A stretch of 64,000 bases of DNA, from the NCBI GenBank assembly GCA_011364985.1, contig RDOC01000002.1:189424-253423 (forward strand). Direction: 5' to 3'. The stretch comes from Candidatus Thorarchaeota archaeon (lineage in GTDB: Archaea; Asgardarchaeota; Thorarchaeia; Thorarchaeales; Thorarchaeaceae). Below the pieces are notes generated by a model. The model was not told the DNA's origin. It was given only the letters and a program-made list of their open reading frames with translations, and ran no database searches. The translations under genes and the position numbers were made by a program. Position 1 is the first letter of the stretch, and the number at the start of each line of letters is the position of its first letter. This document shows positions 18,902-18,931 of the stretch, piece by piece.

Positions 18902-18931
18902 TTTTCAATTCTCGTAGAAACCATGAGAATC
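18902..18931 (-). other. tRNA intron 2 (30 nt, T-loop, position 59/60)
   Basis: BHB with TTCA/TGAA helix, bulges AA^G and AA^T, intron stem ATTCTC/GAGAAT. Confidence 0.88.

Follow-up and report, generated by a model that had tools for sequence, protein, structure and literature searches.

Thirty-nucleotide BHB introns of one design in tRNA, rRNA and protein genes of Thorarchaeia

Overview

Outside the canonical tRNA position 37/38, the introns of Thorarchaeia in tRNA genes, in 16S rRNA and in several mRNAs share one design of about 30 nt. Two of them lie in the 64,000-nt stretch of DNA analysed here (the window), which comes from a Thorarchaeia (Asgard) genome that is 74% complete (G000 among the genomes compared) and whose related loci are named Thorarchaeota; one interrupts the T loop of tRNA-Ser(GCT) at position 59/60 and the other the gene for EF-1alpha (tuf), about 6 kb away. 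The length, layout and loop that the two share stand far above chance as a property of this class, and as a pair they are not unusually close. The explanation that best accommodates these observations, to which we assign a probability of roughly 70%, is that both are protein-spliced BHB introns built to the shared design and that the Ser and tuf introns are distant members of it. The features of the window are collected in Table 1.

Table 1. Intron, exon and helix coordinates of the tRNA-Ser(GCT) and EF-1alpha genes, numbered from the first base of the window
Feature	Position	Strand	Description	Basis
tRNA-Ser(GCT) gene	18885..19027	-	143 nt, two introns, mature tRNA 86 nt	cloverleaf parse; ARAGORN call on the spliced form; G003 ortholog of 86 nt lacks introns
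tRNA-Ser(GCT) 59/60 intron	18902..18931	-	30-nt BHB; 9-bp stem with one mismatch; pentaloop 18921-18917	ten 30-nt same-site orthologs
tRNA-Ser(GCT) canonical 37/38 intron	18963..18989	-	27 nt; outside the 30-nt design	
BHB central helix, Ser 59/60 intron	18904..18937	-	exon 18937-18934 x intron 18907-18904, 4/4; exon-exon helix is the 5-bp T stem	sequence and parse
EF-1alpha (tuf) exon 1	12541..12838	+	3' end inside the invariant 12-residue motif	
EF-1alpha intron	12839..12868	+	30-nt BHB; in-frame TGA 12847-12849; pentaloop 12849-12853	
BHB central helix, EF-1alpha intron		+	exon 12833-12836 x intron 12863-12866	4/4, two G.U
EF-1alpha exon 2	12869..13869	+	protein after splicing 433 aa	
Distal 6-bp exon-exon helix around EF-1alpha BHB	12820..12879	+	12820-12825 x 12874-12879	

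Geometry and predicted splicing of the two introns

A preliminary description of this DNA placed both introns correctly, gave their length rightly as 30 nt and counted 8/11 identities in their central 11 nt, as we do. It also parsed the two identically as 1+6+3+5+3+6+4+2; the common build stands, and is better read as 1+9+5+9+4+2, that is, one 9-bp stem capped by a pentaloop. The EF-1alpha stem has one C.U mismatch, and the inner 3 bp of the Ser stem are not fully paired in this genome, where they consist of an A.C mismatch, a U-A pair and a G.U. Because its close orthologs in G015, G010, G078 and G075 have a perfect inner 3 bp and a loop identical to that of EF-1alpha, the Ser 59/60 intron of this genome is a derived and weaker example of the design.

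In both introns a 4-bp central helix, paired at 4/4 positions, lies between two 3-nt bulges on opposite strands, and across six tuf alleles the cells of this helix are paired in 100% of cases. The Ser helix is flanked by the 9-bp intron stem and the 5-bp T stem, and the tuf helix by its own 9-bp intron stem and a relaxed exon side (1 bp, an internal loop and the distal 6 bp). Cuts after the second base of each bulge yield an 86-nt tRNA-Ser(GCT) and a 433-aa EF-1alpha, matching the intron-free orthologs. The inserts are 30-nt single hairpins with no internal ORF or ribozyme core (homing endonuclease, group I/II), and no Rfam match was found in the window. Both are real BHB introns, and the geometry together with the restored products makes it very likely that they are spliced.

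The host encodes two EndA subunits and RtcB. Its EndA alpha subunit aligns best with PDB 3p1z_B, the Aeropyrum EndA, and carries a loop of crenarchaeal type in which the Lys at the K44 position is kept. Such a loop, with Lys at that position, broadens the range of substrates (PMC3241643). In the pathway that we propose, the two-subunit EndA would cleave each 3-nt bulge behind its second base and the exons would then be joined by RtcB, leaving a mature tRNA-Ser and an open EF-1alpha frame.

Convergent paralogs at 16292-18091 (+) and 19244-21046 (-), 61% identical over 599 aa, flank the tRNA-Ser gene; by sequence they resemble CLC-type channels with CBS domains and may be such proteins.

The EF-1alpha intron and its relatives

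The EF-1alpha intron sits between the codons for DFI and KNM, where it interrupts an invariant 12-residue motif of the only tuf found in the genome, and it carries a TGA in frame. An insert of 30 nt at the same site is also found in G024, G045 and G052, which represent three other genera, and in two metagenome contigs; 15 further members of the family that were examined, including eight from the same genus, lack it. Over the six intron-bearing alleles 95.8% of the pair cells are paired and two stem pairs have changed on both sides; none of 500 shuffles pairs as well (a count that is not a probability, the rows being kin) and slid controls reach 31-62%. All 6 intron-bearing tuf alleles have the 5' strand of the distal exon-exon helix, and none of the 16 intron-free alleles does. 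G045 has, in addition, a second tuf BHB intron (C45:20259-20289; L040 / L198), 31 nt long and present in 1/87 genomes, which lies at RPSW-AWA, shifts the frame and carries the same 7-nt core on a different stem.

These comparisons bear on a different account of the insert, according to which it is translated, the TGA being decoded as selenocysteine, or belongs to a broken gene, and the likeness to tRNA introns is fortuitous. The TGA is indeed in frame in all five sequence variants and the genome has a tRNA-Sec (gene at G000:C11:352835-352925, minus strand). Nor has spliced RNA been seen, since four metatranscriptome contig sets contained no contig of this organism over the EF-1alpha junction, which is evidence neither way (one RNA run contained 5% of the words sought). 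Against such an account, the residues that the insert would encode vary while its base pairs are compensated, it falls inside the invariant motif of the one tuf found, the second G045 intron shifts the frame and both exons are intact. On these four grounds read-through was rejected, and we regard it, like a broken gene, as extremely improbable.

The intron-bearing tuf alleles do not form one clade (p-AU 0.016), which fits lateral spread or repeated loss. The introns of G000 and G045 are 29/30 identical, yet synonymous codons of the two genes match only at about 0.5.

Upstream of the gene, the 3' arm of a hairpin in the tuf 5' UTR (12476-12521, plus strand) can base-pair with the intron core over 13 bp (-19.7 kcal/mol; p about 5e-4). 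As a conserved switch this pairing was rejected, as it occurs in this genome only and is absent from four other intron-bearing alleles.

A 30-nt design outside position 37/38

Introns were collected with a cloverleaf parser that uses BHB geometry and not the loop sequence, which gave 136 unique tRNA introns from this genome, from G003 and from loci of about 15 genera; 21 doubtful parses were removed by hand ahead of the statistics. Among introns outside 37/38, 57/90 are exactly 30 nt long, a figure to be read with the fact that T-loop introns of the wider sample came from a search window of 28-35 nt. In the two genomes treated with no length filter, 19/35 such introns measure 30 nt and 31/35 fall between 29 and 32 nt. 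Canonical introns are centred on 30 nt at only 2/17 sites, and the majority of those at 37/38 do not follow the design. Inspection by eye of T-loop introns from other Asgard families gave lengths of about 17 to 33 nt and only an occasional instance of the loop. The tRNA-Asn(GTT) gene of this genome (G000:C16:187529, minus strand), in which CCA is not encoded, has five introns of 29-32 nt.

Across 39 sites each of the nine stem pairs is made in 87-97% of cases; a G/C pair closes the loop in 93%, and the pentaloop has A at position 1 (77%), U at position 3 (80%) and C at position 5 (60%). The complete A-N-U-N-C loop occurs at 15 of these sites, as compared with a mean of 0.62 and a maximum of 5 in shuffles, and in 1.9% of genomic hairpins. 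The preliminary description had proposed a family of small BHB introns spanning tRNA and mRNA, and as a class the family is supported: the motif is enriched among other introns and is retained by orthologous tuf introns, four of five variants having the identical loop and the fifth a single change.

When one site at a time was left out, the test of the design gave a median p of 0.05. When Ser(GCT) was withheld from training, scoring relative to 12,295 genomic hairpins gave p 0.0012 for both tuf introns, 0.023 for the Ser intron and 0.026 for the 16S intron. A position-weight plus pairing model, trained on tRNA introns of other genomes and on none from this one, ranked the tuf intron 5th and the Ser intron 10th among 3.4 million positions; 14 of its top 16 were known introns and rank 18 falls in a further tRNA gene. 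The 11-mer RTGRTTTCYAC taken alone is unspecific, with 26 matches in the genome of which two are these introns. At G000:C15:169400-169600 (plus strand) there is a tRNA gene starting with C (probably Tyr) that was missed by both ARAGORN and the parser and that holds several introns, apparently two in the T loop.

The genome has at least four protein genes with such introns: tuf, hutU, porA and ahcY. The BHB-type inserts other than that of tuf are found in hutU (G000:C11:449327, minus strand, 29 nt), porA (C11:138556, plus strand, 32 nt), ahcY (C1 near 160, minus strand, 32 nt), 16S rRNA (C4 near 18950, plus strand, 30 nt) and 5S rRNA (C15 near 39988, minus strand, 32 nt). A 31-nt ortholog of the porA intron is present in G101, and the hutU introns are 30 nt long in 7/8 cases, with the loop A in all. 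The pentaloop consensus is not required, because the porA, ahcY and 5S introns have the hairpin and lack the consensus (p 0.45-0.79) and most hutU loops fit it weakly (p 0.31). A coding-potential scan for split genes recovered tuf first and missed hutU, porA and ahcY; a motif-free comparison with 2.4 Mb of G003 returned tuf, porA and hutU as frame-breaking inserts, missed ahcY and found no such inserts in G003 itself. Further candidates from the BHB scan were rejected as ordinary coding sequence or gene junctions.

Ser and EF-1alpha introns as probable distant members

It had further been suggested that such introns moved between tRNA and mRNA, and the two introns of the window, with genes so near each other, invite the idea that one is a direct copy of the other. 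Movement between these two particular genes is not supported. The two are of equal length, and their cores agree at 8/11 positions, or at 9/11 when close Ser orthologs are used, a level of at least 8/11 that is reached by 4.2% of 1492 unrelated intron pairs. Against direct translocation, overall identity is 12/30, which 32% of the same unrelated pairs attain, and the outer stems are unrelated, agreeing at 1/12 positions, under the mean of 3.2. When the 57 tRNA introns are ordered by their identity to the tuf intron, that of Ser comes 25th, and there are others whose core agrees equally well or better, up to 10/11. As a transposed family, defined by 80% or more identity, the Ser 59/60-tuf pair was rejected. 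Direct translocation between these two sites is thus very unlikely, and the two introns are probably distant members of one class, not donor and copy. They would be alike because the introns of Thorarchaeia outside 37/38 share the 30-nt design with its 9-bp stem and G/C-closed pentaloop.

A tRNA-Leu(CAG) intron as nearest relative

The nearest relative of the tuf intron is the 30-nt intron of tRNA-Leu(CAG) (G000:C17:130609-130580), which lies in the variable arm, close to its 3' end. The two are identical at 22/30 positions overall and at 19/23 in the hairpin; outside the hairpin they differ mostly in the four bases that have to pair with host-exon sequence. Among 8.2 million positions no other non-self match to the tuf intron is as good, and a pattern built from tuf alone picked out of 87 genomes only this Leu intron and three introns of tuf, with one control match. 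The highest hairpin score among the 1492 unrelated tRNA intron pairs is 17/23, and simulated introns that share the design reach 19/23 with P 4-7e-4 per intron, or 0.01-0.02 per genome. The pair was picked after the fact, and allowing for four mRNA introns p becomes 0.04-0.07. Orthologs of the Leu intron occur in genera g1, g5 and g7, and those of G069 and G081, read by eye, match the tuf hairpin at 19/23 and 18/23. A search with an 'ancestral' hairpin of tuf and Leu is circular for this pair and was not used as support. From these sequence comparisons we would give an even chance to common descent of the tuf and Leu introns, which makes them a suggestive candidate for transfer between tRNA and mRNA.

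Another reading holds that a 30-nt mobile element has inserted repeatedly into tRNA, rRNA and mRNA genes, that tuf and Leu carry sister copies and that the loop is inherited and not selected. It draws on the tuf-Leu hairpin score above that of every unrelated tRNA pair, on the rarity of such a score in the simulations, on the specificity of the tuf-only pattern, on the agreement of the G069 and G081 orthologs, on the tuf alleles that bear introns and do not form one clade (with near-identical introns in divergent G000 and G045 genes) and on a precedent in Thermoproteales (PMC4090602). Several observations go against it. The tuf-Leu match is post hoc, and about one such match is expected class-wide under a shared design; no second pair of introns this close exists within the genome; tRNA introns of other Asgard families show little copying, 1.5% as compared with 0.6% in shuffled sequences (10.64898/2026.10.13.758758); and the position-specific conservation of the loop in ortholog sets, described below, is hard to obtain by descent alone. 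No reverse transcriptase (RVT_1 match) was found in the 74% complete genome, which also counts against such an element and says little on whether insertion takes place at the DNA level or by reverse splicing. We consider this reading unlikely as a whole. Its copying part is compatible with the explanation that we prefer, namely introns of shared design with Ser and tuf as distant members; the split concerns whether the loop is selected. Somewhat short of an even bet is a further reading, in which a Thorarchaeia family of 30-nt BHB introns spreads among tRNA, rRNA and protein genes, tuf and Leu hold sister copies and the loop is read by some factor.

Several other introns may be mentioned beside the Leu intron. 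A tRNA-Thr(CGT) intron (G000:C16:75495-75524, plus strand), at a site equivalent to that of the Leu variable-arm introns, has a 5' arm identical to theirs in genus g1, and its central helix pairs poorly in that register. An apparent T-loop intron at G049:C228:4400-4448 (plus strand) lies at most 3 mismatches from the hairpin reconstructed from tuf and Leu. At G000:C16:26980-27040 (plus strand) a tRNA-Val-like 3' fragment contains an intron of 30 nt whose core is the modal one; no intron occupies that site in the full tRNA-Val(GAC) gene, and the fragment is possibly an integration scar.

Conservation of the loop and its possible role

Of the ten Ser(GCT) 59/60 orthologs, nine keep loop position 1, eight position 3 and nine position 5, whereas the bases at loop positions 2 and 4 and at the unpaired ends are retained in 4-6 of them, and the stems covary; in the hutU ortholog set the loop A is kept in 6/6. 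These sets of orthologous introns are small (5-10) and their members related. Because the stems are free to change so long as they pair while positions 1, 3 and 5 of the loop are kept within orthologous sets, the pentaloop is probably under continuing selection. No known protein explains the loop, since the known contacts of EndA with RNA are at the BHB and the interiors of cbf5 introns are variable (PMC2738675). The loop might be a structured cap that fixes the register of the stem, such that the BHB folds where no anticodon arm helps; alternatively, the splicing machinery might touch it, at a distance of one helical turn from the cut. We would put about even odds on these two candidate roles. 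The class as a whole probably spread by old copying events whose trace in the sequences is mostly erased.

Known systems and significance

Among what is already known are BHB introns at 59/60, the intron-rich tRNAs of Asgard archaea, an mRNA intron in cbf5 and transposed intron families in Thermoproteales; new here are the test of whether introns in mRNA follow the design too, and the pair with Leu. Non-canonical tRNA introns of archaea at 59/60 and other positions (PMC4090602, PMC11291895, 10.64898/2026.10.13.758758) have the same BHB geometry and T-loop position, and likewise come several to a tRNA in hosts with a two-subunit EndA; the introns described here differ from them in their fixed 30-nt length and conserved pentaloop. 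In the literature searched, with subscription journals thinly covered, we found no description of a fixed-length design with a conserved loop and no paper on a BHB intron in EF-1alpha, and the words 'Thor', 'hairpin' and '30 nt' are all absent from the main text of the recent Asgard tRNA-intron preprint (10.64898/2026.10.13.758758). The same preprint treats the arrival of archaeal introns as the central problem still open and offers no general route for it.

Small BHB introns in mRNA are known from the cbf5 pre-mRNA of Crenarchaeota (PMC2738675) and from the 5' UTR of Haloferax HVO_1309 (PMC7714728), and of these only cbf5 documents BHB splicing within a coding sequence (PMC7714728). As in the EF-1alpha intron, their removal is needed and their gain and loss are patchy; for EF-1alpha removal is obligatory in the sense that applies to cbf5, with an in-frame TGA inside a conserved motif of the only tuf found. 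Here, unlike in cbf5, the host gene is EF-1alpha of an Asgard archaeon and the interior of the intron is conserved, and splicing is deduced from sequence. The transposed tRNA-intron families of Thermoproteales (Fujishima 2010), so far as PMC4090602 relates them, consist of related introns at different sites of one genome, a pattern into which tuf and Leu would fit. The copies recounted there are very similar and lie in tRNAs, whereas here identity is 40% between Ser and tuf, and in the closest pair, with 73% over the whole intron and 83% in the hairpin, one partner lies in a tRNA and the other in an mRNA.

Present knowledge of EndA would not predict a fixed size, nor a conserved loop so distant from the cuts, and these features point to an unrecognised constraint or factor. 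The presence of the same design in EF-1alpha and other protein genes suggests that in this Asgard lineage the tRNA machinery probably splices mRNA as a matter of routine, and that genes bearing such introns get annotated as broken. If true, the relationship between the tuf and Leu introns would record, in sequence, the passage of an intron between a tRNA gene and an essential mRNA. The 30-nt substrates, the EndA of the host and the tuf-Leu pair make both the function of the loop and the route of spread directly testable.
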